IMG/VR virus record: IMGVR_UViG_2788500553_000001
Span: 1 to 60,996 of that record
DNA from: a virus
Strand: one strand, 5' to 3'
Length of the DNA: 60,996 nucleotides
Shown: piece after piece, positions 8,158 to 49,529 of the stretch
Numbering within the stretch: the first letter of the stretch is position 1
Layout: the number at the start of each line of letters is the position of its first letter
Made by a program: the position numbers and the translations under genes
The notes under the pieces: model-generated
Seen by the model: only the letters and a program-made list of their open reading frames with translations
Databases searched by the model: none
What the model was told of the DNA's origin: nothing

Positions 8158-8215
8158 ACAACCGCGGGGAATTGAACCCCGCCACGGAGAGTAACTCCGT
8201 TACGCCAGCGGTTGC
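8157..8215 (-). ncRNA. 59-nt D-armless tRNA-like element
   Basis: Acceptor GCAACCG/CGGTTGT, linker CTGGCGTA, hairpin ACGGAG-TTACT-CTCCGT, T-arm CGGGG-TTCAATT-CCCCG, discriminator T. Confidence 0.65.
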
Positions 8216-8439
8216 TGCCCGGTTTCGAGGTCTTCTAACTCGATTCGGGCGTCGTCGTTGTCTGTCTCAAGACACGCTGCGAACAGCTCCAACGCTTCTT
8301 GGGGCGAATCACCCCGCACCGGCCTGTCAAGCTCCTCGTTTTCAACTTGCCAGCCCGTTCGCTCTTCATCGGTAATCCGATCGCGGAGCCGTACCTCTCG
8401 CAACGTCAATTCTACCTCGGTTAGCTCGGTTTTCGGCAT
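8200..8439 (-). CDS. Small acidic protein (possible HicB-like fold)
   Basis: MPKTEL...WQVENEELDRPVRGDSPQEAL; G-x-S/T-x-x-EAL resembles the HicB N-terminus; start at 8439. Confidence 0.55.
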   Translation of the reverse strand: MPKTELTEVELTLREVRLRDRITDEERTGWQVENEELDRPVRGDSPQEALELFAACLETDNDDARIELEDLETGQQPLA

Positions 8440-8444
8440 ACTGA

Positions 8445-8468
8445 CACCAGCGGTAGGTCGCCACCCAA
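8445..8468 (-). repeat. 24-nt direct repeat, copy following the 167-nt tRNA-like element
   Basis: TTGGGTGGCGACCtACCGCtGGTG. Confidence 0.9.
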
Positions 8469-8635
8469 GCGGGTGGAGGGACTCGAACCCTCGATTCAGC
8501 CGCCCCCAGTCGAACACGAGAAGCGTCGCGTCCCGGTGGCAGGATTACTCATGGCCTCGACAGCCAACTCCGGAGGAATACGCGGAGCGAATACTGGAGG
8601 ATGGGCCTCGACTGATACCTTCACAGCACACCCGC
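8468..8635 (-). ncRNA. 167-nt tRNA-like RNA with a large insert in place of the anticodon loop
   Basis: Perfect acceptor GCGGGTG/CACCCGC, T-arm GAGGG-TTCGAGT-CCCTC, helix CAGTCG/CGGCTG, variable loop AATC, D-region containing GG. Confidence 0.7.
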
Positions 8636-8654
8636 AAAAATGAGAGTTAGCGCA

Positions 8655-9002
8655 CTACGCCTGATCCGCCACGTCGTCGCGGGCATCGAGGATCGCGCCG
8701 ATGAGACTCGCCTTCGACAGCCGCATCGGGTTCTCGATGCCGAGCCGCTCCGCCTTCGACTCCAGTACGTCGACCGACTGATCGGCGAGGCGGCGACGTA
8801 CGACCATCCGGTCGAGGTCGCCCTCGTTGTCCTCACCCGCTGCCGTCGATGGAGCGGGCGCATCGCCGTCGCGCTCGATCCGCACCGTTCCGTCGTCGTA
8901 GACGACGGTGTACGCGTCGAGCGCGGTCGCGATGTAGTCGAGGTCGTCCTCGGTCGTCGCGGCCCGCGTTTCGCCGTACAGGACCGTCTCGCGCTCGCTC
9001 AT
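8655..9002 (-). CDS. Hypothetical protein with C-terminal Rho-N/SAP-like helical motif
   Basis: LADQSVDVLESKAERLGIENPMRLSKASLIGAI resembles the Rho N-terminal domain. Confidence 0.6.
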   Translation of the reverse strand: MSERETVLYGETRAATTEDDLDYIATALDAYTVVYDDGTVRIERDGDAPAPSTAAGEDNEGDLDRMVVRRRLADQSVDVLESKAERLGIENPMRLSKASLIGAILDARDDVADQA

Positions 9003-9004
9003 CG

Positions 9005-9301
9005 TCAGTTGAAGCCGATCGTCGCCGCGTCGTCGTCGAGGCTGTCCTGGCGCACCTGTTCGGCCAGTTCCTGCCCGTCGTAGCCGTCGATGTCAACGTC
9101 GGCCTTCTCACAGATCTCGATCGCCCCGGCGGCGAGCTTCGAGAAGTTCTCCGGCGTGAACACGTAGGCGTCGCCGTTGATCTCGACGTGAATCATCTCG
9201 TCGTCCGCGACGTACTCGGCGCCAAGCGCGACGACGAACGACGGGTCAGGCATTTCTGCGGCTCCACCACTCAGCATCGCCTCAAGCGGGTTTCCACTCA
9301 T
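9005..9301 (-). CDS. Hypothetical protein
   Basis: Start reassigned to MSGNPL; acidic. Confidence 0.6.
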   Translation of the reverse strand: MSGNPLEAMLSGGAAEMPDPSFVVALGAEYVADDEMIHVEINGDAYVFTPENFSKLAAGAIEICEKADVDIDGYDGQELAEQVRQDSLDDDAATIGFN

Positions 9302-9475
9302 CGTTTGAACACCGCCCTCTTGACTTCCGGCTCGCGCCTCGCTGTCCGGGCCGGACAGGCACACCCGACCGGGGTTCGGCAGGGCGTGATAACAGAGAGA
9401 TGGACGAGACACGCGCGTCTCTCGACCGCGACATCGTCGCAGGTGGAACGCGACGCGCCTCATCCGAAACCGCGT

Positions 9476-9766
9476 CTACTCGCGTCTGGGGCGGAGATAT
9501 TCGATGTGGGGATCAGGGAGCGTCATACCGTCGATATGCCAGCGAGCGTACTGCGCGCGGGCCGTCGTCGCCCCCTCAAGCCACGGTTGCTCGACTAACA
9601 GCTCAACCTCACCCTCGACCTCGCGAGTAAACACCGGCACCTCCATCGTCCAGTAGCCGAACTTGCCCGCGTACTTATTCGACGCCGTCGCCGAAAACAC
9701 GCGGAACCCGAGTCGATACTGTTCACCCGGTTCGACCTCGTCGGGGATGTCGCGCTCGTCGGACAT
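9476..9766 (-). CDS. Hypothetical protein
   Basis: 96-aa acidic ORF downstream of the vWA gene. Confidence 0.6.
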   Translation of the reverse strand: MSDERDIPDEVEPGEQYRLGFRVFSATASNKYAGKFGYWTMEVPVFTREVEGEVELLVEQPWLEGATTARAQYARWHIDGMTLPDPHIEYLRPRRE

Positions 9767-9770
9767 GGGC

Positions 9771-11609
9771 TTAAAACAGGATGTCCTTCACGAGAGACCG
9801 GGCGCCGGCCAGCGCCTCGTCGGCCGGGCGGTGTTCGAGTTTGTGGAAGTACTGACTCGCGTTGATTGACTGCTGGTCGAAGTCCTCGTCATCCTCGCGG
9901 ATGTAGATGCCGACCACGGGGAAGTCGCACATCGCCAACTGGTCGCGGTACAGCTCCCGGTGATCCGGCTTCCCGTCCGTCAGGACGATGACGAACGGAT
10001 GTCCGCCCTGCTGATCCAACCGCTCACGAGCCAGCGCGAGCGTATCCGACAGCGGCGTGCCGCCGTCGGCCCGGCCGTTGAACATCTTCTCCTTCGCGTC
10101 CGCGACGGACTCGGGGAAGTCCTTTTCCAACCGGGTCAGGTCATCGAACATCGACATCACCGCGGTCTCGACTTCGACCTCCTCCAACGCCATCGCCAGC
10201 GCGCCGGCGGCCTCCTCGGTCGGCGTCATGAGGCTGTTTCCGAAGTTCGACATCGACCCCGACCGGTCGACCGCGATGACCGCCGAGTAATCCTTCGCGT
10301 CGGGCTTGGACGTGTTCTGGAACACGTTGGTCTTGCCCTTCGACACGTTCTTCATCTGCGACGTGTCGACCTTGCCGGTCGACTTCTTCTTCTGTTTTTG
10401 CGACGCACGCTGCTTCTGGAGGCGCTGCTCCAGCTCGCGGGCGAGCGGCTTCTTCATCCGCTTCGCCTCCTCGAACGCGTCCTGATCGAACGTGCCGGGC
10501 GCCGACGTAACGACTTCCATCTCCGGATCGATGTCATCGTCATAGTCGGTCTGGATCACCCGGACCCACTCCTCCGCTGACTTGACCGACGCCTCGGTGC
10601 CAACCTCCTGCCGCTGCCGGTCGACCTCGTCGGAGTAGTCGATCCGGGCGTCCTGCTTGACCGGCGCCATCTCGAAACTGTCACTCAACTCGGCCGGCTC
10701 GCCGCCGTCGCCATCGTCGTCATCGTCCGGTGCGGCCGCCGGGGCTTCCTCGCCTTCCGAGCCGTCGTTCGCCGTTGTATCCGGTGAGATGGCCTCCATG
10801 TCGAACGTCGGCGTCGTCGTGTCGCCCGACTTCACGGTGCCCTTGATGTCGGCGGCGTGGTCGTCGACGAACTCCCGCAGGATCGCCGGCCGCTCCTCGG
10901 CGTCCGTCTCCGCGAGGTACGCCTCGATCGTGTCTTCCAACGCCGGGAGGATCGTATCGACGTACGTCTCTCGATCGTCGTCGGTCAGGAACTCGATGTC
11001 CGCGTCGGCCGGGTCGACGAGCTTCTCGTGCCACCCGAGCGGGTGCTTCTCCTCCCACAGCCGGTAGACGATCGCGTTCAGGATGGAAACCGTCTCCTCG
11101 TCGTTCTGCTTGAGGAGGTTCTCGTTGGTGATCCGGAACTCGTTTTCCATCCCGAACCGGTCGGCCGCCCGCGGCTCGATGAACGCGTCCTCGAACGCGT
11201 CGAACAGTTTCTTGAACAGCGCCTGATCCGGGTCATCGACGACCACCATCTCGGCCTCGACTGCGGGCCAGTCCGTCCACTTCAGGTGACCGATTTCGTG
11301 ATACAAGTCGGTCTCCTGAACCATCAGGTCCCACTCACCCTCGGGGACCGACGTTTCCGTCTGCTCCGGCACATCGGCCCGCACGTTGATGATCTTCCGG
11401 TCGGTGTATCCGAACTCGGTATCCGCGTCCGCGAGGTCAGCGTACGCCCGATCGCCGCTGACCTGAACGAACACCTCCTGATTCGTCGACATAATCGCCC
11501 GCTTCTCGAGGTGTTCGCGACGGGCCTTTGATTCGCGCAGTTTTTCTCGGCCGCCCTCACCGAAGCGGCGCTCGACCGTTTCGACCTTCGTGTTTGTATC
11601 GAGGAACAT
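9771..11609 (-). CDS. CobT-like vWA-domain protein with N-terminal metallopeptidase-like motif
   Basis: MIDAS DRSGS, GGTPL, LTDGKPD; N-terminal HEIGH...FED..IE; start reassigned to MFLDTN. Confidence 0.85.
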   Translation of the reverse strand: MFLDTNTKVETVERRFGEGGREKLRESKARREHLEKRAIMSTNQEVFVQVSGDRAYADLADADTEFGYTDRKIINVRADVPEQTETSVPEGEWDLMVQETDLYHEIGHLKWTDWPAVEAEMVVVDDPDQALFKKLFDAFEDAFIEPRAADRFGMENEFRITNENLLKQNDEETVSILNAIVYRLWEEKHPLGWHEKLVDPADADIEFLTDDDRETYVDTILPALEDTIEAYLAETDAEERPAILREFVDDHAADIKGTVKSGDTTTPTFDMEAISPDTTANDGSEGEEAPAAAPDDDDDGDGGEPAELSDSFEMAPVKQDARIDYSDEVDRQRQEVGTEASVKSAEEWVRVIQTDYDDDIDPEMEVVTSAPGTFDQDAFEEAKRMKKPLARELEQRLQKQRASQKQKKKSTGKVDTSQMKNVSKGKTNVFQNTSKPDAKDYSAVIAVDRSGSMSNFGNSLMTPTEEAAGALAMALEEVEVETAVMSMFDDLTRLEKDFPESVADAKEKMFNGRADGGTPLSDTLALARERLDQQGGHPFVIVLTDGKPDHRELYRDQLAMCDFPVVGIYIREDDEDFDQQSINASQYFHKLEHRPADEALAGARSLVKDILF

Positions 11610-12787: not shown

Positions 12788-12913
12788 ATCGTTCGCACAC
12801 CTCCGTTATCGCCCGCTTAGCGACCCGACCGGGGATTTTTGGTGGGTTCGGGCCGGTCTACCACGTCACGGTGGGGCGACGCAGACCGGTAAAGGAGGAG
12901 CGGTGTGCCGGCG

Positions 12914-14038
12914 TTACGCCTCAACCGGCTCCGCTTCGTCGTCGTCGGCCTCGAAGTCGTCGAGGTTGGCCTGTGCGATCACGTCGTCGACGATCTCCGT
13001 CTTCTCGTCATCGCTGAGCTGCTCCTTCTGCCGTTCGAGCGCGTCCTCAATACTGATCTCCGCATCGAGGAGGCCGTTGTATATCTCGGCCGTCTCGCTC
13101 GCCTCGGCGTTGATGTCCGCCTTGATCGCGTCGACCGCCTCCGCCGCGGCCTCGCCCTCGTCGAACGCGTCGAGCGCCTCCTCGACGATGTCGTCGACCG
13201 CCTTCTCCAGCGTCTGCGTGACAGCCGCCTCGACCCACGCCTGCTTGTCCGGCGTATCGAGGATCTCGAACGTCCGAATCGCCATCGGCTCACCGCGCTC
13301 CTTGTACGACTCGTTGATGCGGTCGAACAGCTCGGCGAGGTCCTCGACGAAGTCGATCATCGCCGCCGGGAAGAGGTACACCGACCGCTGAAGCTTGATG
13401 ACGTTCTGTGTGTACCGCCGAACCACCCGGTAAATCATGTCCCGCATATCCGTCGCGGTGTGAGTGTGCTGGAACTCTTTGTGAAGGTTCCGCGCACCCT
13501 CCGACACGTCCTTCCAAACCGGCGCGAGGTAGTCGTCTTCGCTCAGGTCGTCGTCGGCGCGGGCGATGAGCCGGTTCGACTCGTCATCGTAGAAAATATC
13601 GCCGAGGTGGAACTGCCGCCACTCGCCGCCCTCGGTGCCGGACTCCTCCTCGTCGAAGAACACCTCACCGCGGACGTGATGCCAGCGGCGGCCTTCACCC
13701 TCTTTGATGTCGACGGTGACCCGATGCTCCTCCTCGACGCCATTATCGGCCCGCGGCGCCTCGACGAAGTAATCGTCGAGCCAATGCTTCGTCATGTGCT
13801 CGATCGTCCGGCTGTACGCCTTCCGCGGCGTCGGCTGCGGCGGCGCGATGTCGTCAGGGAGGCCGATGTCCTCCATCTGATCCATCAGCCAGTCGCGGGG
13901 CGTCAGCGCCGACCACTCGGCGCCGACCACGTACGTCACGCCGTATCCGATGACCTCATGGTCCTGATCGCCGGTGAGGTCGGCGAGTTTCGCTTTTTCG
14001 GCGTCGATGCCACTATCGAGTTGGGTTTTCCCAGACAT
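12914..14038 (-). CDS. Hypothetical protein, possibly DUF3150-like, linked to the MoxR/vWA pair
   Basis: Acidic, helical C-terminus; SVYLFP segment; gene position. Confidence 0.6.
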   Translation of the reverse strand: MSGKTQLDSGIDAEKAKLADLTGDQDHEVIGYGVTYVVGAEWSALTPRDWLMDQMEDIGLPDDIAPPQPTPRKAYSRTIEHMTKHWLDDYFVEAPRADNGVEEEHRVTVDIKEGEGRRWHHVRGEVFFDEEESGTEGGEWRQFHLGDIFYDDESNRLIARADDDLSEDDYLAPVWKDVSEGARNLHKEFQHTHTATDMRDMIYRVVRRYTQNVIKLQRSVYLFPAAMIDFVEDLAELFDRINESYKERGEPMAIRTFEILDTPDKQAWVEAAVTQTLEKAVDDIVEEALDAFDEGEAAAEAVDAIKADINAEASETAEIYNGLLDAEISIEDALERQKEQLSDDEKTEIVDDVIAQANLDDFEADDDEAEPVEA

Positions 14039-37459: not shown

Positions 37460-38749
37460 ATGAGTGCCGCCACGGCAAATCGACAGCCCCTCACGCCAGC
37501 TCCGGCGTTCGAGACGCACGAGAAACAGCAAGAACTCGTGGCGTCGCCCGAGCGGTTCCGTGTTGCCTCGTGGGGCCGCCGGGCAGGCAAGAACATCTCG
37601 GCGGTAATCGACCTCGTCGAGCACGTTCGGTATCCGTGGCGGTTTGAGTGGGGGACCGACGATCCTGATGACTACCTCATCTGGTGGCTCGGCCCGTCGT
37701 ACGACCAAGCGAATAAGTACGGGTTCCAGACGTTCATCGCTGCGATCCCCGACTCATGGATCGACGATGTCAACCGGACAAAGCCGTACGTCGTTGTGCT
37801 GTCGAACGGCGTTACAGTCGAGTTCCGGACGTACGACCGCCCCGACTCGCTTCAGGGCGCCGGCGTCGACCACATGATCGTCGACGAGGCATACCAGATG
37901 CCCGAGGAGGTGTGGTATTCGGACCTCGACCCCATGCTCCTCGACACGCGGGGTTCGGTCCTGTTCATCTCGAAACCCAAATCCCGGTTTTTCAAGAAGC
38001 TGTATGAACGGGGAGAATCCCCGGACTTCGAGGAGTGGGCGTCGTTCCACGCGACGAGCGCAGATAACCCGTTCATCGACGAAAATCCGGAGGATAAACG
38101 GGGCGAAGTCCCCGACATGGTGTTTCGGCAGGAGTATCTCGCCGAGTTTGTCGACGACGAGGGCGATGTATTCGGGGCAATCGACGATCTCCTGTTCACG
38201 CTCGACGGGCCGCCGGACGAGCCGACCCCGCCGTTCGTTCATGGCTGGGACCTCGCCCGCCACGACGACTACACCGTCGGCGTCGTCTTGGACGCAGACG
38301 GGCGTCTTGTCGAGTTCGAGCGGATGCGGGATAAGTCGTGGCCGCAAATCGAGGACGCCATTAGAACGGCGGCACGGCGCAGAGACGGCATCGTGGCGAT
38401 GGACGCGACCCGCGATAACAAGCTCGTCGCGGACATCGGCGCCGACCACGCCGTCGAACCGATCAAGTTCACGCGGCAGACGAAAACGGACCTCGTCGAG
38501 AACCTCGCGACCCGAGTAGAGAACGGCGAGTTGTCGGCGTACGATGTGCCGCAACTCCGGCACGAGATGACGGTGTTCACGTACGAGGTGACGCCGTCGG
38601 GCAACGTCCACTACGCGGCGCCGGAGGGGTACAAAGACGACTGTGTCGACGCGCTGGCGATGGCGGCCGATCAGTTGTCGCAGGTACAGGCGATGAAGCG
38701 GCGCAAGGATAACCGCGACGACGATCGCGGTGGAGTGACCTACATATGA
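37460..38749 (+). CDS. terL: Terminase large subunit
   Basis: Walker A GRRAGKN, Walker B IVDEA, nuclease GWDLA and DDCVDALA. Confidence 0.95.
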   Translation: MSAATANRQPLTPAPAFETHEKQQELVASPERFRVASWGRRAGKNISAVIDLVEHVRYPWRFEWGTDDPDDYLIWWLGPSYDQANKYGFQTFIAAIPDSWIDDVNRTKPYVVVLSNGVTVEFRTYDRPDSLQGAGVDHMIVDEAYQMPEEVWYSDLDPMLLDTRGSVLFISKPKSRFFKKLYERGESPDFEEWASFHATSADNPFIDENPEDKRGEVPDMVFRQEYLAEFVDDEGDVFGAIDDLLFTLDGPPDEPTPPFVHGWDLARHDDYTVGVVLDADGRLVEFERMRDKSWPQIEDAIRTAARRRDGIVAMDATRDNKLVADIGADHAVEPIKFTRQTKTDLVENLATRVENGELSAYDVPQLRHEMTVFTYEVTPSGNVHYAAPEGYKDDCVDALAMAADQLSQVQAMKRRKDNRDDDRGGVTYI

Positions 38750-38975: not shown

Positions 38976-40499
38976 ATGAGCGCGAGTGACGATTCAGCCG
39001 GACAGGCAGACCTCAACGTCTACTATCCCGGCGCCGACGGAACACTCGAAAAAGCCGCCGAGTCGCAGCAGCTCGACGAGCGGCACGTCGGCCGAACGAT
39101 CGGCGGCGGCATCAGTCCGCCGTATCCGCCGGCGAAGCTCGCGACGTTACAGGAGATTAACGGCACCCACGCCGTCGCGATTAAGAAGAAGTCCGTTCGC
39201 GAGGTCGGCTTCGGCTTCGACATCGTGCCTCATCCCGAGGCCGAGGATCCGAGCGAGGACGAGAAAGAGGTCCTACAGGAGTTCTGGCACGGTCGGGAAT
39301 CGATTTGGAAAACCGGGCCGCAGGGCACGCCCGCTTCGACGCCGACTGAGGTATTCGAGGTGAGCCGGCGTGACTGGCACGGCGTTGGCTGGCAGGCGAT
39401 CGAGGTGATGTATTCGGCCGACGATCAGCCGGTCGGCCTCGCGGCGGTGCCTGCCGAGGAGATTCGGGTTCGGAAAGGCAGTTCCTCTCCCGTTTCGGTC
39501 GGCCACGGCTACGTTCAGGAAGATGACGGCCTTACGGTGTATTACGGCGAGGCCGGGGATCGGGGGCAGCGCGTTCAAATGGAGTCTGACGAATCCCCCA
39601 CGTACGTCGATCGGAAGACGGGCGAGACGGCGGAGGATCCGAACGACCTGAAAAACGAGCCCGCCAACGAACTCCTGTTTATCCCGAACCAGCACCCGTT
39701 AACGAAGTACTACGGCATCCCTGATTGGGTCGCGGAGGTCGAGACCATGATGGCCGACCAGTCGGCCAAGGAGTTCAACCGTCGGTTTTTCGATTACGAC
39801 GCGATGCCGCAGTACGCGGTTATCGTTGAGGACGGCCGGCTGACGGAGCAGTCTCGTAAGAGCCTCCGTGAGTTGGTGGATCGGCTTCGGAAAAGCGAGG
39901 ATCGTCGCATGGTCGTTCTTGAGGCGGAGGAACTCGCCGACTACGACATCGACACGGCAGACGGTGGGACGCCGAAAATCCGCATCGAACCGCTTAGTTC
40001 GCAGGGAGAGGAGGATATGGCGTTTACCGAGTTCCGCCGGATGAACGAGCATGACATAGCGAAGGTTCACGAGGTGCCGCACGTCCTGATCAACCGGTTG
40101 GAGTCATCCAATAAGGCCAACTCGCGCCAGCAAATCCGCGATTTCACCGAGGAAGTCATTAAGCCTCAACAGAAGCGGTTTGCGGAGCGTATCTACCGTG
40201 TCATCCACCAAGAGGTTCTTGGCGTCGACGACTGGACAATCGAGTTCCATACAAAAGGGACGGATCAACTCACCGAAGCGGAGTTAGCACAGACCCGGAT
40301 CGCGGCGTCCAACGGGTCGATGTACGTCAACGAAGCCCGTGAGGAACTCGGCCTCGAACCGAAAGACGAGTTGGAGGGCCTGTTGCTCGCAGAGTTAAAC
40401 AATCCGAAAATCGGCGATGGGGCGCCGACCAACGCCCCGGTTCAACAGCCGCCGGCCGGAGAGGGCGGTAACGGCTCCTCGTCTCCGTTCGGAGAATGA
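38976..40499 (+). CDS. Portal protein
   Basis: 507 aa after terL; YYGIPDW, NRRFF, FTEFRR.NEHDIAKVHEVP, YVNEAREELGLEP. Confidence 0.9.
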   Translation: MSASDDSAGQADLNVYYPGADGTLEKAAESQQLDERHVGRTIGGGISPPYPPAKLATLQEINGTHAVAIKKKSVREVGFGFDIVPHPEAEDPSEDEKEVLQEFWHGRESIWKTGPQGTPASTPTEVFEVSRRDWHGVGWQAIEVMYSADDQPVGLAAVPAEEIRVRKGSSSPVSVGHGYVQEDDGLTVYYGEAGDRGQRVQMESDESPTYVDRKTGETAEDPNDLKNEPANELLFIPNQHPLTKYYGIPDWVAEVETMMADQSAKEFNRRFFDYDAMPQYAVIVEDGRLTEQSRKSLRELVDRLRKSEDRRMVVLEAEELADYDIDTADGGTPKIRIEPLSSQGEEDMAFTEFRRMNEHDIAKVHEVPHVLINRLESSNKANSRQQIRDFTEEVIKPQQKRFAERIYRVIHQEVLGVDDWTIEFHTKGTDQLTEAELAQTRIAASNGSMYVNEAREELGLEPKDELEGLLLAELNNPKIGDGAPTNAPVQQPPAGEGGNGSSSPFGE

Positions 40500-41320
40500 T
40501 CAAACGCTCGTCGACGGGCAAGCCGGTCGTCGTTCATAAAGTCGAGGACGCGCCGGAAGTGGAGTCGGTGATGCGGTCGTTCCGTCGGCAACTCCGCGAC
40601 GTGTTCGACGACCTCCGTTCAGAGATCGAGCAGACGGTGCGAGACGCCGTTGCTGACCCGGAGGGTGACTGGCAGGCGGTAGTCGACAAACTCGCCAGAG
40701 CCTACCGAGACGCGATTCTCTCGACGTTTCTCTCCGGCATCGGCGATGGCCTTACGGCCGGGCGACGGGCGACGGCCCGGCGCTACGGCATGGCGATCGA
40801 CTTCGACATCACTCCAGAGTCGGCGATCGAGAACGTCGACGAGTATGTTGAGAGAGTCACCGACGAAGTCATCGACACGATCGGCGGTCGCCTCGGGCCG
40901 CGGCTCCGTGATTGGTTCGAGAACGGACTAAGTTATGACGAGGTCGCCGAGCGCATCCAGCAGGAGTCTCGCGACGTGCTTGGCGAGTACGCGCTCGAAC
41001 GCCACGCCCGGACTCTCGTTCATGGCGCAGCGGAGCGCGGCAATCAGTCGGCAATCGAGGATAGTTCGGCGATCGGCAAAGAGTGGATCGCGACAGACGA
41101 CAACCGGACGCGGCTTACACATCGACGCGCCGACGGTCAAATCGTGCCGGTCGAAGGCCAGTTCGATGTCGGTCAAACGGACCTGTTTCATCCCGGCGAT
41201 CCGACGGGGCCGCCCGGAGAAATCGTGAATTGTCGCTGTACCTGTGTTCCCGTATTTGAAAGCGATTTGACCGAAGAACAGGCGCGACGGCTCAAACGGG
41301 GCGAGCGGCTGTACCTCTAA
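40496..41320 (+). CDS. MuF / SPP1 gp7-like head morphogenesis protein
   Basis: KEWIATDDNRTR.TH...DGQ, PGD...GEIVNCRC. Confidence 0.9.
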   Translation: MIKRSSTGKPVVVHKVEDAPEVESVMRSFRRQLRDVFDDLRSEIEQTVRDAVADPEGDWQAVVDKLARAYRDAILSTFLSGIGDGLTAGRRATARRYGMAIDFDITPESAIENVDEYVERVTDEVIDTIGGRLGPRLRDWFENGLSYDEVAERIQQESRDVLGEYALERHARTLVHGAAERGNQSAIEDSSAIGKEWIATDDNRTRLTHRRADGQIVPVEGQFDVGQTDLFHPGDPTGPPGEIVNCRCTCVPVFESDLTEEQARRLKRGERLYL

Positions 41321-41615: not shown

Positions 41616-44600
41616 ATGACGGACACACTACAGAAGTCGGTTAAAATCGAGAAGGTCGACACCGAGGCCCGAACAGCGACCGGGGCGGTCATGATCCCGA
41701 ACGAGGTCGACCGCCAGCGCGACTTCGCTCGGCCCGATGCGATTCGTCGCATGGTCGAGCCGAACCCCGACGACGGCGTCCTTCACGTCGCCTTCCCTGA
41801 CGACGCGGCGGAGTTGACTCGCTACGAAGTCGTCGACGAGCCGACGACGATCGGCGAGACGGAGTTTCCCGCGGGGACGCTAATCGCGACGCGGAAGTAC
41901 CACGACGACGCGCTTTGGCAGCTCGTTCGCGACGGTATCCTCGACGGCTTTTCGATCGGCGGTGCCGTGTTCGACGAGCGTGAGTACGGCTCCGCGGCGG
42001 AGGTGCCGCGCGATGTGCGCTTCCCCCCGGCGATCGAAGAGGGGCCGGCGACGGAGATCGTCGACGGTCGGATCAGCGAAGTGTCGGATGTCGACGTGCC
42101 GGCGGTGCCGCGGGCGACGTTCCGCGAGTTGGGGAAGCTTGGAAAGAGTGTCATCGACGACATTAGCGGGAAGTCGGAGTTCGTCGACGTGTTCACCGAG
42201 CGGGGACATGACCCCGACGATGCGCGGCGTCTCTGGCGGTATTTGGACGAACAGACCGACGCGAACGTTTCCCCCTCCGGCGTCCCTGAACCCGCAGAGA
42301 CGGCAGAGACGCGCGAGCAATCGCCTGTCAATCGCGCCGCGGGCATGATCCTCGACGCGCTCCGGACGCTGACCCGCGCCGCCGATGGCGACGGCGGGCA
42401 GTCGGACATCGACGCCCTCGCCGAGCAGGTCGACGTCTTGCCGCCGGGCCTCGATTCGATCAGCACGGCGTGGCTCAACCGTTGGGCGGAATGGATTGCC
42501 GCCGGCCGCCCGGAAATCACCGAGACGGCGACCGAAGCCACGAAGGTCGAGAAAGACTTCAACCCCGCGCTTCATCCGCGCGACCCGGATACCGGCCAGT
42601 TCGTCGAGCGTCGGTTCGACCTGCCCGACGACGCTCCTAACTTCGGTGAGATGTCGACCAAAGAGACGCTCGCGTACATCGAGGAGAACGGCGGGCCGGT
42701 CGATCCGATATTCGACCCCGATGCGAACGTCACCGTTGACGGTGTGCCGAATAACGCTACGTCGGTCGAGGAGATACCCGAAGAAGCGGACGAGGCCGAC
42801 CCCGGCCGCCTCCTCGATGTCGACGCGTTGAGTGGCGGCGACGAAGTCGTGATCGACACCGAGCAGGGCGTGACGATGCGCGGCACCGTCGAAGGTAGTA
42901 CCGACGACGGCTGGATCGACCTCGATCAAGGTGACGACGGAATCAACATGGTTCAGGTCGGCGATGTCGCCGAGGTCCGCGCCGACGGCGAGGTGTCGGA
43001 TGAGGCGGTCGTTGATGCGTCGACGGTGGACACGGACGAGTTCGAGGAGTTCGATCCCCACGTCATCGACGATATCGAGGAGGGCATGACCGTCGAGGCT
43101 GATGTGCCGTCGAAACCGGAAAACCCGACCGGTGAGGTGACCGACACGGGAGACGGCTGGATCGAAATCGACGGCGAGGAGGCCGTGTTCGAGTACCAGT
43201 CCGAAGGCGTCCGTGTTTCGCCCGACGACCTCGATGACCTCGACCCGTCGATTAACTTCGACGAGTACGACGACATCACGGAGCTGCCGGACGATGCGAG
43301 TGTTTCCCTCTACTCGCCCGAGGAAGGCCTCATCGACGATGCCGAAGTTGCGTACGCCGGTGACTTCTCCGTCGCTGTTGAAAACGAGAACGGCTATTAC
43401 ACGTTCAACGCCGAGGATGTCGACGGGTTCGGCGATCCCGACGAGTTCGACCCGACGATCGACGAGCAGCTCACCGAGCAAGTGAGTCAGGGCCAAGTAG
43501 TGCGCGTCGATACCGCGACAACTGGATCAATTGAAGGGTCCGTCGTCGCTGTTGGCTCCTCAACGGTCGGCGTCGACCTCGGACCGGGAGACGGTGTTCA
43601 CACAGTCGATGACCTCGATGTCGTCGATTACGATGTCGTCGATTCCGGCGACGATGAGGACGAGATCGATACCGGCGATATCCCTCCAGTCGTTCCGGAC
43701 TCCGCAACGCCTGTTGAACCTGCGGATGTCTCCACCGGCGATCGTGTCGGTTTGTTCACCGCCGAGGGGGCGTTCGACTACGAGGAAGACGAATATCACG
43801 AAGGCGAAGTTGTGAATACGTTGGACGGCGGCGGCCTCGTACTTGACGAAGGCGGCGAGGACACCAATCACTTCTCTCCGTTTGAAATCGATGAGGCATA
43901 CGACCTCGGCGATACCGATGACGAACAGGACCTCGTGTTTGACACGGTGGTCGAGCCTCAGGATGTCGATGAAGGCGATCGCGTCGAGATCGATATTTCC
44001 GAGGGCGTGATGGAGCCCGGCGTCGAGCCGGGCGATACGATCCGGGGTGAAGTGACGAATCAAGGCGGAACTAATCTCGACATCGAAACTGACGACGGCC
44101 AGTCATACTCGCTGGTCGGATTCGAGCAGGAGGAGATACGCCTCGGAACGCCCGAAGATGATGGAGACACCAGCGATACCGGTGAAACCGCAGAGACGGC
44201 CACAGATGCGGCGGTGTTCGGCCCTGGTGAGGAAATCGACGACCCCGCATCCCTCGATGTCGGTGACACCGCGTATATCGACGCCGATTGGATGGATGAG
44301 CCAAAGCAGGTCGAGGTGACGTGGAGCCCCGACTATACGGACGGGATGGAAGTCGACACGGAACTCGGCGGTGAATTGACGGTCAGCGATGAAGAGTACA
44401 CGTTTTACGAGGACTCGTCGAGCGGGTTCGTCGGCGGCTACACGATCCCGTCGACCGAAACGCTGGACACGAACGTCGACCACGACGAAGCGGTCGCGTT
44501 CAACGAGGAACTCGCCGAACGCGTCGATAGCGGTGATCCGACCGACATCAACGCGACGACGTACAACACCTACGCCGGGTCGATTCAGGACCCGAACCTC

Positions 44601-46010
44601 GTCGAAGACGCGTACGAGCAGGTCGTCGAGAACAACGGCGCGAAGACGACCCGGAAACGCCTCGAACAGCGGCTCCGTGGGATGCCTGAGGCGAGCGATC
44701 CCGAGGATATCCGCGATGTCGACTTTGATGAGGTTCCGGAAACGCGGCAGAATACGGTTTGGAGTGACTTTGACCGTGAAACGGCCGTCGAAGTCGCGGC
44801 GCACGTCGAGGCGCGAAACGGCGACTTCAACGAGTGGGGCGCGTGGAACGACTTTCTCGATAACCTCACCGACGACGAGATCCGCGACGCGTTGGAGAAG
44901 GCGGTGTTCGAGAAAGACGAGCGCAACTTCAACTCGTTCGATGACCCGCATGACTACGTCGACGGCGTCGACCACGACGAGGACAGCGTCAACCCCGGCG
45001 AGTTGAATAACGGCGCCGCGGCGTTGCTGTCGCGGGCGCCAGAAGGGACGGCCGACGACCTCATCGAGCAGCTCGACGAACGAGCGATCGGGCAGCAGCG
45101 CGAATACTCGGTGTATCGGATGGGCGCGTCGTTCCTGTCCGACCCCGAGGATCGCCGGCGGATGTACGAAGAGGGAAACGTCGACCACAAAGCGGCGAAC
45201 CTCCAGTTCGACGAAACGATGACGCCGATGGATCGGATGCGAGCCATTGGTAAAATCCACACCCGAACGACCTCCTCGAAAAACTCCTACGCGGTGCGAG
45301 CAATGATGGCGGGCATCGAAGACGGGCCGCACGTCAACTACTACAACGACAAAAAGCCGATCGCCCCGATCGAACCGCCGGACTCAGTCAAAAACGCGCT
45401 GGGGGATCATCAGGACCGCATCGCCGACCAGATCGAGGCGGCTAACGAGGGCGGCTCGCCGATGATGAACTCAAACATCGCTGATGAGGTCAACCCCGAC
45501 GGCACGATCACCATCTACCGCGGCGCGTCGTCGAAGTACACGGGGATGTCGTCGGTTCAGTCGTGGTCGACCGACTACACGACGGCCAGCAGCGGGATGT
45601 TCAACGGGCAGGGCGTTATGGAGTATGACGCCGACCCCGAGGAAATCGTCGCGGTTCAGGGCCTGACCCACGATCAGCACCCGACCGAGGAGGAAGTCAC
45701 GATGCTCGGCGGTGCGATTGACCCCGAGGACATCCGCGTCGCAGAGGGTGACCCGATCGACGAGGACGAGCTGCTGGAGAAGCTCTTCAAAGTCGACCCG
45801 TCGACGCCGCGGTTCGGGGTGCTTGGCCCCGAAGGCGTCCATGCGGCGGCCAGCGACGGCACGCTCGATCCGGGGATGTTCGAGCGGTATCGAATCACCG
45901 AGAACGGCTACATCTTCGACGCCGAAACCGAGGACTACGTCGGTATTTGGAACGACGACGGCGGGCAGGCGGACTTGACTGAGTCGGCGGCCGCAGAGGT
46001 CGCGGGGTGA
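41616..46010 (+). CDS. XkdF-like prohead protease fused to a shared HPRD domain, SH3-like repeats and a C-terminal ADP-ribosyltransferase
   Basis: N-terminal ATGAVMIPNEVDRQRD...LDGFSIGG...EVSDVDVPA; C-terminal YRG...SWS...EEE. Confidence 0.75.
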   Translation: MTDTLQKSVKIEKVDTEARTATGAVMIPNEVDRQRDFARPDAIRRMVEPNPDDGVLHVAFPDDAAELTRYEVVDEPTTIGETEFPAGTLIATRKYHDDALWQLVRDGILDGFSIGGAVFDEREYGSAAEVPRDVRFPPAIEEGPATEIVDGRISEVSDVDVPAVPRATFRELGKLGKSVIDDISGKSEFVDVFTERGHDPDDARRLWRYLDEQTDANVSPSGVPEPAETAETREQSPVNRAAGMILDALRTLTRAADGDGGQSDIDALAEQVDVLPPGLDSISTAWLNRWAEWIAAGRPEITETATEATKVEKDFNPALHPRDPDTGQFVERRFDLPDDAPNFGEMSTKETLAYIEENGGPVDPIFDPDANVTVDGVPNNATSVEEIPEEADEADPGRLLDVDALSGGDEVVIDTEQGVTMRGTVEGSTDDGWIDLDQGDDGINMVQVGDVAEVRADGEVSDEAVVDASTVDTDEFEEFDPHVIDDIEEGMTVEADVPSKPENPTGEVTDTGDGWIEIDGEEAVFEYQSEGVRVSPDDLDDLDPSINFDEYDDITELPDDASVSLYSPEEGLIDDAEVAYAGDFSVAVENENGYYTFNAEDVDGFGDPDEFDPTIDEQLTEQVSQGQVVRVDTATTGSIEGSVVAVGSSTVGVDLGPGDGVHTVDDLDVVDYDVVDSGDDEDEIDTGDIPPVVPDSATPVEPADVSTGDRVGLFTAEGAFDYEEDEYHEGEVVNTLDGGGLVLDEGGEDTNHFSPFEIDEAYDLGDTDDEQDLVFDTVVEPQDVDEGDRVEIDISEGVMEPGVEPGDTIRGEVTNQGGTNLDIETDDGQSYSLVGFEQEEIRLGTPEDDGDTSDTGETAETATDAAVFGPGEEIDDPASLDVGDTAYIDADWMDEPKQVEVTWSPDYTDGMEVDTELGGELTVSDEEYTFYEDSSSGFVGGYTIPSTETLDTNVDHDEAVAFNEELAERVDSGDPTDINATTYNTYAGSIQDPNLVEDAYEQVVENNGAKTTRKRLEQRLRGMPEASDPEDIRDVDFDEVPETRQNTVWSDFDRETAVEVAAHVEARNGDFNEWGAWNDFLDNLTDDEIRDALEKAVFEKDERNFNSFDDPHDYVDGVDHDEDSVNPGELNNGAAALLSRAPEGTADDLIEQLDERAIGQQREYSVYRMGASFLSDPEDRRRMYEEGNVDHKAANLQFDETMTPMDRMRAIGKIHTRTTSSKNSYAVRAMMAGIEDGPHVNYYNDKKPIAPIEPPDSVKNALGDHQDRIADQIEAANEGGSPMMNSNIADEVNPDGTITIYRGASSKYTGMSSVQSWSTDYTTASSGMFNGQGVMEYDADPEEIVAVQGLTHDQHPTEEEVTMLGGAIDPEDIRVAEGDPIDEDELLEKLFKVDPSTPRFGVLGPEGVHAAASDGTLDPGMFERYRITENGYIFDAETEDYVGIWNDDGGQADLTESAAAEVAG

Positions 46011-46016
46011 TCGACG

Positions 46017-47333
46017 ATGAGTGTGCCGGAGTCCGTATGGAAAGCGCGGAGCGCTGTCAAACAGCAGTCCCTCATCGATGCCGCGTCGAGCCGTGAGGAG
46101 TTGATCGAGGCGATTCCCGTCTGGCCGGACTCACTTGACCGCATCACGGAGGCGTGGCTGAACCGATGGGCCGAGTGGGTCGCGGCGGGGCGGCCGCTTG
46201 TCGAGAGTTACGATGGCGCCGAAGTCGAAAAGTTCGATCCGGCACTCCACCCGCGCGACCCCGAGACGGGGCAGTTCGTCGAGCGGCCGTTCGATGTGCC
46301 GAGTGATGCCCCGGACTTCGGCGGGATGTCGACGAAGGAGACGCTGACGTACCTCGACGAAAACGATGCCAACGTCTCGGCGGTGTTCGATCCGGAGTCA
46401 GAGGTAACCGTCGACGGGGTGCCGAACCGCGCGACGAGTATCGACGACGTGCCGGACGATCCGGAGGAGGCGAATCCGGAGCCGGTCGGTGATACGGCGC
46501 CCGATGACGCGCACTTTACTCGCGACGATCACGAAGAGTGGGAGTCGACGACGCTCGACGACATCACAAGCCGGCAGTCGATATACGACGCCGACGACGC
46601 GTCTACGGGCGTGACGGCCACGTCGATGGAAGTTGTCGAGTTGGAGGATGGAACGACCGGCTTCGTTACGCACTACGGAGACGACGCCGATCTGCCGGCA
46701 GACGCGGATGCCGTCGACGGGGCCGACCCCCGAACGGCCGACCGGCAGATGATCGCGTATGAGGGCAGTCGGCGCATCGGTGCCGAGTTAGACGACGAGT
46801 TGGCGGCGTTCATCGGAAATACGGTGCCGCCGCACACCCACATCGACGGCGACGGCTCCCACGAGGCGGTCATCGGCGAAGAGTTCGACGGCGATCGCGT
46901 GTGGGGCGCCGCCGGCCAGTCGGTCGACGAAGCGATGGCGATCGACGCCGCCGCGGTTCAGATGATCGTCGGAAACAACGACGCTCACGGCGATAACGTG
47001 ATGGTCGACGACGACGGCAACCTCGGGTTCATCGACATCGATCACTCGGCCGGACGGCTATCGAACGAGGATCCCGGCACCGGTTCGGGGAATAACGCCG
47101 ATCGCGCTCTTAATCGCGCCGCGAAGTCGTTAGAGGTCGTTACATCGCTAAGTCACAGCGAGTTGGAGCGGGACATCCTGAATCGGAGTCGGGCGTTGGC
47201 TCGTGAGTTGGATACGGAGGCGTTCAAGTCGGAGTTACGCGAGGAACTGTCGGCGTGGGACGATGAGTTGGTCGAGAACGTCGTCGTGAATATTGAGGAG
47301 CTTGCGGACCCAAACATGACGGTGACACGATAA
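46017..47333 (+). CDS. HPRD-domain protein with C-terminal PI3K/PI4K/HipA-like kinase domain
   Basis: N-terminus paralogous to part of 41616..46010; GNNDAHGDN catalytic loop and FIDIDH. Confidence 0.7.
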   Translation: MSVPESVWKARSAVKQQSLIDAASSREELIEAIPVWPDSLDRITEAWLNRWAEWVAAGRPLVESYDGAEVEKFDPALHPRDPETGQFVERPFDVPSDAPDFGGMSTKETLTYLDENDANVSAVFDPESEVTVDGVPNRATSIDDVPDDPEEANPEPVGDTAPDDAHFTRDDHEEWESTTLDDITSRQSIYDADDASTGVTATSMEVVELEDGTTGFVTHYGDDADLPADADAVDGADPRTADRQMIAYEGSRRIGAELDDELAAFIGNTVPPHTHIDGDGSHEAVIGEEFDGDRVWGAAGQSVDEAMAIDAAAVQMIVGNNDAHGDNVMVDDDGNLGFIDIDHSAGRLSNEDPGTGSGNNADRALNRAAKSLEVVTSLSHSELERDILNRSRALARELDTEAFKSELREELSAWDDELVENVVVNIEELADPNMTVTR

Positions 47334-47560
47334 TGCTGCTCATCAAACACCGAACGGACGGCGGCGAGTACGAGCCGACTGCGGTGTACGTCGACGGCGA
47401 GTTGCGTGGCGAGTCGGCGTTCGTCGACGCGATGGCGTTCATGGAAGGCGACGACGAAGACGCGGTCGCGGAGTCGTTGGCGGACGGATACACGAAGGTC
47501 GTGTCGCATCCGGACGGCGAACCGCTCCCGAGTGAGTGGCGTTCAGTTATCGTCGAGTGA
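47333..47560 (+). CDS. Small acidic protein coupled to the kinase gene
   Basis: TAATG overlap with the kinase stop; 75 aa. Confidence 0.65.
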   Translation: MLLIKHRTDGGEYEPTAVYVDGELRGESAFVDAMAFMEGDDEDAVAESLADGYTKVVSHPDGEPLPSEWRSVIVE

Positions 47561-47603
47561 GTTGGTGGCGTAGCGTTCGCGAAGTGATACTCATTAGTGA
47601 TAC

Positions 47604-48536
47604 ATGGATGCCGAGGACCTAGAAAAGCCGTTTACAGGGCCAGACGGACAGGAGTTCGATGATTTCGGCAGTTGTGTAATGACGCTGACGGAAGACGGCG
47701 ACATGAGCCGCGACGAAGCCGAGCAGATGTGCGGCTCGTGGATGGAAGGCAAGTCCGCCGATGACGCCGGTAATGCGGCCGAGGACACGGACAAGGGCGA
47801 CGACATGGATGGCGACGATGATGAGAGCCCGTATTACGACAACTGGATCGAACGCCTCGATGAGGGCGAGGATCCGTGTTGGGACGGGTATGAAATGGTC
47901 GGCCTGAAGCCGAACGGAAACCCGCGGTGTGTGCCGGTCGACGAGAAGGAGTCGGCCGTCGCGGAAAAGGTCGGGCAGACGCTGTCGAAGGAGAACGTTC
48001 GGCGGGCGAAGGCCACGCACGACATGGCCGAGAAGATGTTGAAAGCGCAGGGTGTGAGTTGCCATAAAGGCGACTCGCGGATGTACGACGAAGACAAGAG
48101 CGACGATTTCTCGCTCGGTGATGTCGCGAAGGCGATGACCGGAGTACCGGATAGCGCGTCAACTGACGCTGCGGATGTGTTCAAACAAATGGACGGAGAC
48201 GCACCTGAGTGGGCCACCGGCCTGCTCGACGACGTGGAACAGATCAGCAAGAGCATGGACGAGATCGAGGACCGCGTCGATGCGGTCGAGGCGGAAGTCG
48301 AAAAGGCCGACGCCGGCGACGGTGAGGAAACGCCGGAGTGGGCTGACGGCCTAACGGAGAAGGTCGAGTCGCTCCGCGAGGACGTGGAGGCGCTCGATGA
48401 CCGTGTCGATCGCGTGTCGAAGGCGACTGCCGGCACGCAGCAGGTCGGCGGTTCCGAGGAGTCGGGCGGCGAGGACGGCGACGATGAGCTGTCGGAGACG
48501 GAGAAGGCCAAGCGAAAGCTGTTCCTCGGCGCGTAA
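47604..48536 (+). CDS. Capsid scaffolding protein (putative)
   Basis: Immediately upstream of the capsid gene; acidic coiled coil; N-terminal Cys-containing motifs. Confidence 0.75.
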   Translation: MDAEDLEKPFTGPDGQEFDDFGSCVMTLTEDGDMSRDEAEQMCGSWMEGKSADDAGNAAEDTDKGDDMDGDDDESPYYDNWIERLDEGEDPCWDGYEMVGLKPNGNPRCVPVDEKESAVAEKVGQTLSKENVRRAKATHDMAEKMLKAQGVSCHKGDSRMYDEDKSDDFSLGDVAKAMTGVPDSASTDAADVFKQMDGDAPEWATGLLDDVEQISKSMDEIEDRVDAVEAEVEKADAGDGEETPEWADGLTEKVESLREDVEALDDRVDRVSKATAGTQQVGGSEESGGEDGDDELSETEKAKRKLFLGA

Positions 48537-48578: not shown

Positions 48579-49529
48579 ATGAGCGACGTGTCTCGTAGCG
48601 ACGCACGGAGTATCGACAAGCAGATCGACCTCGACGGCGAACTCGCCGGCGGCGTCCTGCCCGAGGACCTTTTCGATGAGTTCTACGAACTCGTTCAGAA
48701 CGAGTCCGTACTCCTCGACGAGGTCCGGACGGTGGACCTCCCTCGGCCGCAGATGAAGATCCCGCGGATCGGCGTCGGCGAGCGGATGATCCGCGAATCC
48801 GGCGAGCGGGTCGACAACTCGGAGACGGAAGACGTGACGACTGACACGGTGCCGATGTCGGTCACCAAGATCGACCTCAAGTGGTCGCTGCCGCAGGAGG
48901 CGGTCGAGGACACGATCGACGACGTGCCGGACATCGTCATGGAGCAGATGAGCCAGCAGTTCGCGGTCGACACCGAGGAGCTGGCCCTGAAGGGCGACGA
49001 GGCGGAGTCTGACCCGTTTATCGGCATCGAGGACGGGTGGTTCACTCTCGCGTCGGCTCGCGGGGCGCCCACCTACTCGCTGGCGGACTCGAACGGTAAC
49101 CCCCAGCCGGTCAGCCCGGAGAAGCTCAACGAGGCGATGCGGGCGCTGGAGCCGAAGTACCTGCGTGACGAGCCGGCTTTCCTCGTGAACACCCATCACG
49201 TTAACCAGTACTTCGGTGAACTGGTCGACCGCGAGGACGGCCTCGGCGTGGCAGTCATCCGCGGTGAGGAGGAACACAATCCGTTCGGTCACGACATCAT
49301 CGCCTCCCCGGTCTTCCCGCTCGATAAGGCGATGTTCACGACGACGGATAATCTCATCTACGGGCTCCACCGCGACGTGGAAGTCGACGTGCTCGACGAG
49401 TCCGACGAGGTCTTCGACAAGGACCTCTTCGCCAAGTACGCGATCCGCGCTCGCCTCGACTTCCAGATCGAGGACGAGAACGCGGCACTCGTGATGACCG
49501 ACATCGAGGACCCGACGATCAACGCCTAA
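48579..49529 (+). CDS. Major capsid protein (HK97 fold)
   Basis: 316 aa; GGVLPEDLFDEF...Q.ES.LL, ALEPKY, NLIYGLHRD, R.DFQIED. Confidence 0.9.
   Translation: MSDVSRSDARSIDKQIDLDGELAGGVLPEDLFDEFYELVQNESVLLDEVRTVDLPRPQMKIPRIGVGERMIRESGERVDNSETEDVTTDTVPMSVTKIDLKWSLPQEAVEDTIDDVPDIVMEQMSQQFAVDTEELALKGDEAESDPFIGIEDGWFTLASARGAPTYSLADSNGNPQPVSPEKLNEAMRALEPKYLRDEPAFLVNTHHVNQYFGELVDREDGLGVAVIRGEEEHNPFGHDIIASPVFPLDKAMFTTTDNLIYGLHRDVEVDVLDESDEVFDKDLFAKYAIRARLDFQIEDENAALVMTDIEDPTINA

Follow-up and report, generated by a model that had tools for sequence, protein, structure and literature searches.

A predicted capsid-delivered ADP-ribosyltransferase and kinase pair headed by a shared leader domain in a provirus with haloarchaeal features

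Why would two adjacent head-module genes of one virus carry the same domain ahead of unrelated enzymes? The question arises at positions 41,616 to 47,560 of a 60,996-nucleotide stretch, positions 1 to 60,996 of IMG/VR virus record IMGVR_UViG_2788500553_000001, which we refer to as the window. The record is a provirus with a completeness rating of 69%, and its proteins are highly acidic, as for haloarchaeal viruses, which suggests a virus of a salt-loving archaeon. The first gene encodes P0001, in which a prohead protease domain is followed by the shared domain (SD), acidic repeats and an ADP-ribosyltransferase (ART)-like domain. The second encodes P0002, in which SD precedes a kinase-like domain; an alternative start gives a 410-residue form, P0004. 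We consider it probable that the two enzymes are cargo units delivered with the viral DNA, and that the locus is an archaeal-virus counterpart of the capsid-delivered 'polyvalent' effector proteins. The two proteins are built as follows.

41616-46010, plus strand: gene of P0001, 1464 residues
41616-42260, plus strand: XkdF-type (Peptidase_S78_2) prohead protease domain, P0001 residues 1-215 (Pfam PF14550, E 3e-11, 43.9 bits against a cut-off of 24)
42399-42803, plus strand: SD copy 1, P0001 residues 262-396 (BLASTP E 6e-47 against copy 2; SD profile at 42417-42800, E 1.2e-60)
42558-42602, plus strand: core leader motif of SD copy 1, FNPALHPRDPDTGQF (H-P-R-D..G.F invariant in alignments A1 and A5; regular-expression match at 42573)
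42804-44315, plus strand: about seven very acidic, small beta-barrel-like repeats, P0001 residues 397-900 (weak match to Pfam DUF6897; repeats counted by eye)
44316-45287, plus strand: middle region, P0001 residues 901-1224 (no Pfam match; no homologue among 104 family proteins)
45288-45800, plus strand: R-S-E ART-like domain, P0001 residues 1225-1395 (R1302 at 45519; SWSTD at 45561-45575; E1358/E1360 at 45687-45695)
46017-47333, plus strand: gene of P0002, 438 residues, SD then kinase-like domain
46065-46481, plus strand: SD copy 2, P0002 residues 17-155 (BLASTP; SD profile at 46098-46475, E 8.3e-60)
46233-46277, plus strand: core leader motif of SD copy 2, FDPALHPRDPETGQF (alignments A1 and A5; regular-expression match)
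46584-47330, plus strand: PI3K/PI4K/HipA-like kinase-like domain, P0002 residues 190-438 (GNNDAHGDN at 46971-46997; FIDIDH at 47028-47045)

Comparison of P0001 with P0002 by BLASTP gave a single strong match, between residues 262-396 of the former and residues 17-154 of the latter, with 58% identity over 141 columns. The original prediction, made from the letters of this DNA without database searches, had placed a domain of about 110 residues in both genes. The sharing stands, the strings that it quoted are present and its coordinates are near, but the domain is longer, at about 135 residues. No significant similarity was found between the two proteins beyond SD, which agrees with the accompanying claim that their C-termini are unrelated. 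At the DNA level the two copies are about 76% identical, with differences falling mostly at synonymous sites (nonsynonymous divergence dN 0.30, synonymous divergence dS 1.46, dN/dS 0.20). They are therefore old paralogues under purifying selection, and neither a recent duplication nor an assembly artefact.

SD had no match in Pfam. In the AlphaFold2 (AF2) model of P0002, residues 41-60 and 91-150 of the second copy were placed with a predicted local distance difference test (pLDDT) score of 85-95, and the loop bearing HPRD with about 50-60. Judged from this model, SD would be a small folded module, the low score of the HPRD loop being what a displayed loop would give. Across an alignment of relatives, the invariant part of the domain reads N-P-x-L-H-P-R-D-P-x-T-G-x-F-V-E-R; the residues upstream of this motif are not conserved among the aligned haloviral SDs. 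The tripeptide VEK, which precedes the motif in both window copies, was considered as a cleavage code and rejected, as it was absent from the eight relatives aligned.

The C-terminal domain of P0001 was examined in a 19-sequence alignment of this protein with 18 relatives (A3). R1302 lies within IYRG, which fits the aromatic-R-G sequence expected on the first NAD-binding strand, and its Arg and Gly are invariant. The second strand carries SWSTD (residues 1316-1320), which takes the form N-[YWF]-[ST]-[ST]-D in most relatives, and in the catalytic-loop motif E-x-E, here E1358-E-E1360, the second Glu is invariant and the first nearly so. An AF2 model built from A3 had a core pLDDT of 70-90. A wide VIA-align search of this model against 48,161 chains returned only 102 with Z >= 2, and about 45 of the top 50 were ART-superfamily chains, judged by their titles. 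The best match was diphtheria toxin (Z 7.0, root-mean-square deviation 3.6, 93 aligned), and further ART matches included KptA, RhsP2/Rhs ART toxins, HopU1, ParT, SdeA, Scabin, PARPs and C3larvin. Weak Foldseek rows were likewise enriched in ARTs, and the Atlas lead for the domain was DRAT. Sequence searches were silent: residues 1201-1464 had no Pfam match even at E 10, and the ART region retrieved nothing relevant among PDB sequences. With the triad R / S-x-S-T / E-x-E kept in the alignment and a fold search that returned almost only ARTs, the original assignment of an ART to this end of P0001 holds, and we accept the domain as ART-like, with a predicted activity.

The C-terminal domain of P0002, for which an atypical kinase had been proposed, is kinase-like with moderate support, and its activity is likewise a prediction. 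The proposal was upheld at the catalytic loop, which is PI3K/PI4K/HipA-like: D322, H324 and N327, invariant in alignment A4 together with the Gly of the family pattern G..D.H..N, align with the PI3K G-D-R-H-x-x-N loop, and the invariant D340 in FIDID, in the place of the metal-binding Asp of the DFG-equivalent motif, aligns with PI3K HIDFG. Among PDB sequences the region matched PI3K catalytic loops only (phmmer E 0.6; profile E 0.057). In Pfam, PI3_PI4_kinase was the sole match at E <= 10 (E 0.48, 10.7 bits against a cut-off of 27.1). Foldseek gave a best E of 0.047, with weak rows mostly to protein kinases or PI3Ks, and Atlas features led to PI3_PI4_kinase and HipA_2 clusters. Atlas structure comparison gave template modelling scores of 0.6-0.72 to domains in phage MuF, NUDIX and ART proteins, as well as to a cluster with PI3_PI4_kinase in 11% of its members. 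A VIA-align fold search with the whole of P0002 was uninformative, being dominated by the helical C-terminus. Neither P0001 nor P0002 contains HExxH.

Between SD and the middle region of P0001, the acidic repeats are 31% Asp plus Glu and 2% Lys plus Arg, and may serve as a spacer or as a DNA mimic inside the capsid. Weak Hva1_TUDOR matches were seen in SD relatives and neighbouring genes elsewhere (P0026; 7253-7885 of locus L010; 11178-12068 of locus L001).

We then located these domains within the head module, which is complete in the window: TerL, portal, MuF, P0001 and P0002, scaffold, HK97-type major capsid protein (MCP) and adaptors were recognised with Pfam and phrog. The genes around the two effector genes are these.

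37460-38749: TerL, head module
38976-40499, plus strand: portal (Pfam Phage_portal, PF04860, E 5e-26; 48% identity to the HRTV-DL1 counterpart)
40496-41320, plus strand: MuF/gpC head-morphogenesis protein, 274 residues (Pfam Phage_Mu_F, E 4.6e-10; 32% identity to the HRTV-DL1 counterpart)
47333-47560, plus strand: open reading frame (ORF) of 75 residues, acidic, its ATG overlapping the P0002 stop; a companion conserved with kinase genes
47604-48536, plus strand: coiled-coil scaffold protein, counterpart of the post-protease part of phiCh1/HRTV-DL1 gpB and forming the right-hand edge of the cassette (coiled-coil noise in Pfam)
48579-49529, plus strand: HK97-type MCP (Pfam Phage_capsid, E 3e-12; phrog_1623, E 5e-68; 37% identity to phiCh1 gpE)

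HRTV-DL1 and phiCh1 have their portal, MuF, protease, MCP and adaptor genes in the same order as the window. The protease domain of P0001 is 52% identical to the N-terminus of HRTV-DL1 ORFS1B and 42% identical to the phiCh1 gpB prohead protease, and its position is orthologous to gpB of phiCh1, phiH and HRTV-DL1. Among isolated viruses, matches to P0001 were confined to this domain and comprised only the gpB prohead proteases of HRTV-DL1, phiCh1, phiH, CGphi46, BJ1 and psiM2/psiM100. H57 (in VLH) and S113 (in GFS), candidates for the catalytic His and Ser, are conserved in pairwise alignments with HRTV-DL1 and with one bacterial XkdF protease. No further protease candidate was recognised between portal and MCP among the window ORFs by Pfam or phrog. 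The suggestion that one of the two carriers is the maturation protease itself was thus borne out, with PF14550 above its cut-off and homology to gpB.

In phiCh1 and HRTV-DL1, gpB is a single protein of 540-628 residues comprising protease plus scaffold. In the window its two halves are apart. Residues 5-215 of P0001 match the protease half, and the scaffold ORF at 47604-48536 matches the remainder: its residues 14-45 align with phiCh1 gpB 239-268, residues 199-309 with gpB 508-627, and residues 198-291 with HRTV-DL1 ORFS1B 450-528 (E 3e-10 pairwise, 3.8e-9 by local BLAST). As the flanking parts match the two gpB halves, the roughly 5.3 kb between them (about 42261-47603) is an insertion exactly at the gpB protease/scaffold junction. 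The inserted stretch holds SD, the acidic repeats, the middle region, the ART-like domain, the SD-kinase gene and the 75-residue ORF.

The original prediction had described the shared domain as modular, and a profile search with SD, which it had suggested, revealed several different C-terminal partners rather than a single fixed one. A word-indexed search found 34 related proteins. An exhaustive profile search through 1.84 billion proteins yielded no more than 86 cluster representatives, and the Asp plus Glu fraction of nearly all of them was 0.19-0.26; with relatives this acidic, SD looks specific to viruses of halophilic archaea. In 76 proteins with a near-complete SD, from hypersaline viromes, the downstream partner was a zincin-type HExxH domain in 49, an ART-like domain in 17 and a kinase-like domain in nine, with nothing recognised in eight. 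In the HExxH partner, HExxH and a further Glu are invariant; its profile gave weak matches to the FtsH protease domain (E 0.012) and to anthrax lethal factor (E 0.05), from which we assign it as a zincin. One ART-bearing relative, P0037, reached 51 bits to Pfam ADPrib_exo_Tox (cut-off 23.4), and another protein of the family, P0058, matched DRAT weakly.

SD was seen in three settings. It lies near the N-terminus of proteins of 300-1200 residues, or after a portal of 450-780 residues, or two to three times per chain, as in P0003, P0005 and a 1504-residue protein of locus L022; orders such as SD-ART-SD-zincin occur, with each SD ahead of an enzyme. Kinase and ART co-occur: L006 and L007 have them in a single chain (SD-kinase-HhH-ART), and L010 and the window each divide them over two SD genes. 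L010 encodes a 946-residue SD-kinase protein in the portal position, in which no portal domain was detected, together with SD-X-ART. The SD genes occupy the interval from TerL/portal to MuF in all 12 of 12 IMG/VR loci and in the loci surrounding single members of the family; some are fused to the C-terminal end of the portal, and the others are the genes that follow next. Most of these relatives belong to another type of head module than that of the window, with Phage_portal_3 and Phage_capsid_4, which indicates that the effector units moved between unrelated head modules.

No isolate in INPHARED carries SD, and INPHARED phages gave no match to P0002 by tblastn or to the 12-kb head region by megablast. 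A pattern scan with the SD profile found no relative in GTDB representative genomes, although the patterns were narrow and this is weak evidence of absence.

Two side observations concern these archaeal loci. The 1504-residue L022 protein (6824-11335), beside the portal on a 66-kb haloviral contig, has three SDs and two HExxH motifs; no other archaeal virus examined uses the leader so repetitively. A conserved family of 585-1214 residues without a Pfam match (L003 14201-16381, L006 6573-10214, L004 11724-15161) lies between MuF and the cement/MCP genes in haloviral modules of the Phage_portal_3 type; it fills the slot expected for a protease or scaffold, and no XkdF domain was detected in it.

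The core of SD reaches beyond archaeal viruses. The weakest matches of the SD profile were non-acidic bacterial proteins, including P0103 and P0100, and the motif [WF][DN][PE]xxHPRDxxGxF stands in 1-6 copies ahead of the effector domains of bacterial-phage proteins that are joined to MuF, a portal or a prohead protease. P0103 combines 2H/Acb1, TopoIB, ART-PolyVal and MuF and is encoded between portal and XkdF protease on a 67-kb phage contig, while P0100 carries NUDIX (L011 8001-12467). Each has four copies of [KE]x[WF][DN][EP]xxHPRDxxGxF, all between Pfam domains, and P0100 has a fifth, degenerate copy. A profile of the motif retrieved more MuF-type polyvalent proteins, with 2-5 copies and with GNAT, ART-PolyVal, ADPrib_exo_Tox, InPase, Zeta toxin and Portal_Mu domains. 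P0106 has motifs at 534 and 685, one on either side of its ART-PolyVal domain (538-682).

We extended the search to IMG/VR DNA with a pattern back-translated from W-D-E-x-x-H-P-R-D-x-x-G-x-F, for which a chance match has a probability of about 2^-42 per position. At least 120 stretches matched. Among the matches listed, 143 ORFs with the motif had a median length of 585 residues, and 33 of them contained 2-6 copies at a median spacing of 225 residues. The first motif lay within 30 residues of the earliest start in 15 of the 72 complete ORFs in this set and within 60 residues in 23; in just one did it come within 60 residues of the C-terminal end, from which we conclude that the motif stands ahead of a domain. 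Pfam analysis of 58 sampled ORFs from the same set identified MuF (8), ARTs (8), 2H (3), Portal_Mu (2) and Peptidase_S78 prohead protease (2), as well as other portals, NUDIX, RelA_SpoT and Zeta toxin. The motif is a hallmark of head-associated effector units, and SD is its folded archaeal-virus elaboration.

Full-text literature searches with the motif strings gave no mention of them, nor do they appear in the surveys of polyvalent proteins (PMC5512222) and MuF toxins (PMC5576092). Among isolated phages, tblastn with a 45-residue motif segment and with a bacterial polyvalent protein gave only MuF-domain or sub-threshold matches, so no well-studied phage bearing the motif was identified.

Some of these bacterial proteins share further parts with haloviral ones. 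On the 67-kb bacterial phage contig L009, a 1972-residue polyvalent protein (4134-10052; 2H/Acb1, TopoIB, ART-PolyVal, MuF) has four HPRD motifs, the portal is related to that of the window (E 1.7e-19), and a stand-alone XkdF-type protease (12881-13459) belongs to the same family as the window's. The C-terminus of P0100 (residues ~1336-1482) matches the profile of the haloviral ART-like family, which is therefore not confined to archaeal viruses.

These results are consistent with the following model. A cassette has entered gpB at its protease/scaffold junction, the scaffold has become a separate gene, and the prohead protease domain runs on into SD, the acidic repeats and the ART-like domain. 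Each enzyme would form an effector unit headed by SD, a module displaying the invariant HPRD loop, and the head machinery would recognise and handle the unit by this leader. The leader may dock the unit inside the procapsid, or it may mark the cut that frees the unit from its carrier, made by the prohead protease or by a zincin in cis. Carried inside the capsid, the ART and the kinase would reach the next host cell together with the DNA and there modify host proteins. A packaging tag, the role that the original prediction proposed, is plausible for SD. Since SD mostly follows a portal that already resides in the head, and the motif punctuates bacterial multidomain proteins, SD would fit about as well as an ejection signal, or as a site of processing or release.

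Several points weigh against this model. Packaging and delivery are predicted from gene position and fusions alone, for a virus known here only as sequence, and a domain that served purely for targeting would add nothing to a portal or protease that is part of the head in any case. In a collection of 15 billion proteins P0001 stands as a singleton, its protease fusion occurs in no other SD protein, and the window lacks the zincin that is the commonest SD partner elsewhere. For the enzymes, neither domain reaches a Pfam threshold. The fold match of the ART-like domain is modest, with all Z < 8 and Foldseek E >= 0.1. The AF2 model of the kinase-like domain is poor (pLDDT 30-55), and no invariant ATP-binding Lys was seen in its N-lobe strands, an invariant Arg being found in the predicted alpha-C helix instead.

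A narrower explanation, which we regard as possible but short of probable, is that SD and its HPRD core are a proteolytic junction and nothing more, cut by the prohead protease or by a zincin in cis, with head entry left to the carrier or to other signals. The anatomy of the longer proteins suits this idea. The motif sits at polyprotein domain boundaries, for instance around ART-PolyVal in P0103 and P0106, SD follows carriers already in the head, and the gpB junction that received the window cassette is likely a natural cleavage point. The residues before the W/F of the motif are uniform within a protein and differ between proteins (K, EA or D), as for a co-evolving protease. The frequent HExxH plus Glu partner (49 of 76 proteins) also fits, zincins having been proposed to process polyvalent proteins (PMC5512222). 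The stand-alone proteins fit it poorly, however: their motif comes 5-16 residues after the N-terminus, and a cut at that point would detach nothing. P0100 and P0103 have their four copies without any HExxH, the residues before the motif vary among haloviral SDs as noted above, and a folded domain of about 135 residues exceeds the needs of a cleavage site.

The same evidence bears on what the leader would do in the model that we favour. Its N-terminal position in stand-alone proteins and its folded display module favour docking, packaging or ejection. Polyprotein boundaries, the frequent zincin, uniformity before W/F within a protein and insertion at the junction favour processing. We weight the two roles roughly equally. 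They are not exclusive, and a T4-like signal that is first recognised and then clipped would satisfy both. More tentatively, the motif leader, with SD as its archaeal elaboration, could be a universal, transferable capsid-cargo signal of bacterial and archaeal tailed viruses, a short peptide sufficient for loading, processing or ejection of any downstream domain.

It is unlikely that the two enzyme-like proteins, rather than being cargo, have their role late in the cell that makes the virus, for instance on capsid, scaffold or host proteins during assembly, with SD serving only to tether them to the assembling head. Such a role would accord with their place among late head-module genes, and fusion to the protease would put the ART at assembly sites; their delivery, moreover, is something that we infer. 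Weighing against it, T4 Alt is a packaged ART. In addition, ART, kinase, 2H/Acb1, NUDIX and zincin domains joined to a portal or to MuF typify the early effectors that phages inject (PMC5512222, PMC5576092).

We also rejected as improbable, the DNA not being conserved, that the motif is a joint for swapping effector cassettes by homologous recombination rather than a protein signal. It does demarcate variable modules in many architectures, and the window cassette is clearly an insertion. Precedents for such joints are VENN in CdiA and DPxGL in Rhs, short invariant peptides between a constant delivery part and variable enzyme modules. The HPRD motif differs from them in sequence, in being repeated before every module rather than occurring once, and in its protein-level conservation. 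Between the two SD copies of the window most synonymous sites have changed and the peptide has not, so conservation is at the protein level, and the motif persists across bacterial and archaeal viruses whose GC content and codon usage are far apart.

Least probable is a kinship of SD with the Nup98 autoproteolytic domain that would make it self-cleaving: eight distinct Nup98 sequences of that domain were the only PDB matches of the SD profile (E 0.04, about 50 residues, with the pattern KE..YLD.N...V.L...AEVT.DGV.P at profile positions 73-121, window 46300-46450) and self-cleavage would fit a junction role, but the E-value is borderline, similar segments occur in permuted order, no HFS-like nucleophile motif is conserved and AF2 predicts helices (pLDDT 88-95) where Nup98 presumably has beta strands, and with secondary structures that disagree we rejected the relation as probably due to chance.

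Capsid delivery of the two enzymes can be set beside known systems. In T4, the ART Alt rides in the capsid and passes into the cell with the injected DNA, and a short N-terminal signal together with prohead-protease processing controls its loading (cited in PMC5512222 and PMC5576092). The window resembles it in having an ART-like domain in a head context, as read from the genes; no sequence relationship between the two was seen, though no search aimed at one was made. The T4 signal is about 10 residues long and is removed, whereas SD is a folded domain. Compared with phiCh1, phiH and HRTV-DL1, the window shares the collinear portal, MuF, gpB, MCP and adaptors and a protease domain 42-52% identical, and differs in having effector genes between the two gpB halves.

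Closer in kind are the polyvalent proteins, which are large multidomain proteins of portal-terminase head modules with ARTs, kinases, zincins and nucleic-acid-binding domains; many are joined to a portal or to MuF, packaging and injection have been proposed for them, and they were noted to be scarce in archaea (PMC5512222). P0001 likewise joins a protease and an ART-like domain in one chain among head genes, its relatives show kinase-HhH-ART and SD-ART-SD-zincin orders, and bacterial P0103, P0105, P0106 and others bear the same HPRD motif as the window SD. The window differs in its likely archaeal host, SD, the XkdF-type protease carrier, the split of the effectors over two SD-headed genes and the lack of a zincin. 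MuF toxins carry variable C-terminal toxin domains (ARTs 14%, metallopeptidases 20%) that are proposed to be delivered with the DNA, and a small immunity-like gene often follows (PMC5576092). P0001 and P0002 are also head-module proteins with variable C-terminal enzyme domains. In contrast to MuF toxins, the window MuF is separate and has no extension or toxin, P0001 and P0002 have no MuF match, and the enzymes hang on SD. The locus is thus in kind an instance of the known phage polyvalent-protein and MuF-toxin theme (PMC5512222, PMC5576092); new are the archaeal setting, the SD domain, the prohead-protease carrier and the cross-domain leader motif. The original prediction knew of nothing like it described for archaeal viruses, and the searchable literature agrees (PMC5512222, PMC8651126); the ARTs of HVTV-1 and HCTV-5 are listed only as metabolic genes (PMC8651126).

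Two further features of the window stand apart from the effector genes themselves. The 75-residue ORF after P0002 had a sole homologue, the N-terminus of a 241-residue gene located 3' of the SD-kinase-ART gene in L006 and L007 (E 7.8e-6), and may encode an immunity or chaperone partner; Pfam searches with it and with the small neighbour genes in related loci gave nothing useful. Positions 1-2000 have a GC content of 71%, against about 62% elsewhere in the window, and may be host flank at the provirus boundary.

Only for a few model phages, among them T4 (capsid targeting sequence) and P1 (Dar proteins), have the selection, loading and release of injected proteins been worked out in detail. No description of these steps in archaeal viruses was found in the literature searched. 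The locus offers an archaeal example of a predicted head-borne ART and kinase effector pair. It also constitutes a natural experiment, in which the same head module occurs with the cassette, in the window, and without it, in phiCh1 and HRTV-DL1. Its leader contains a short invariant motif that is common to bacterial and archaeal viruses and precedes effector domains. If this motif is a handling signal, it would provide a sequence rule for spotting virion-delivered effectors in viromes. If it is a transferable cargo signal, it would be usable to program protein delivery by phages.

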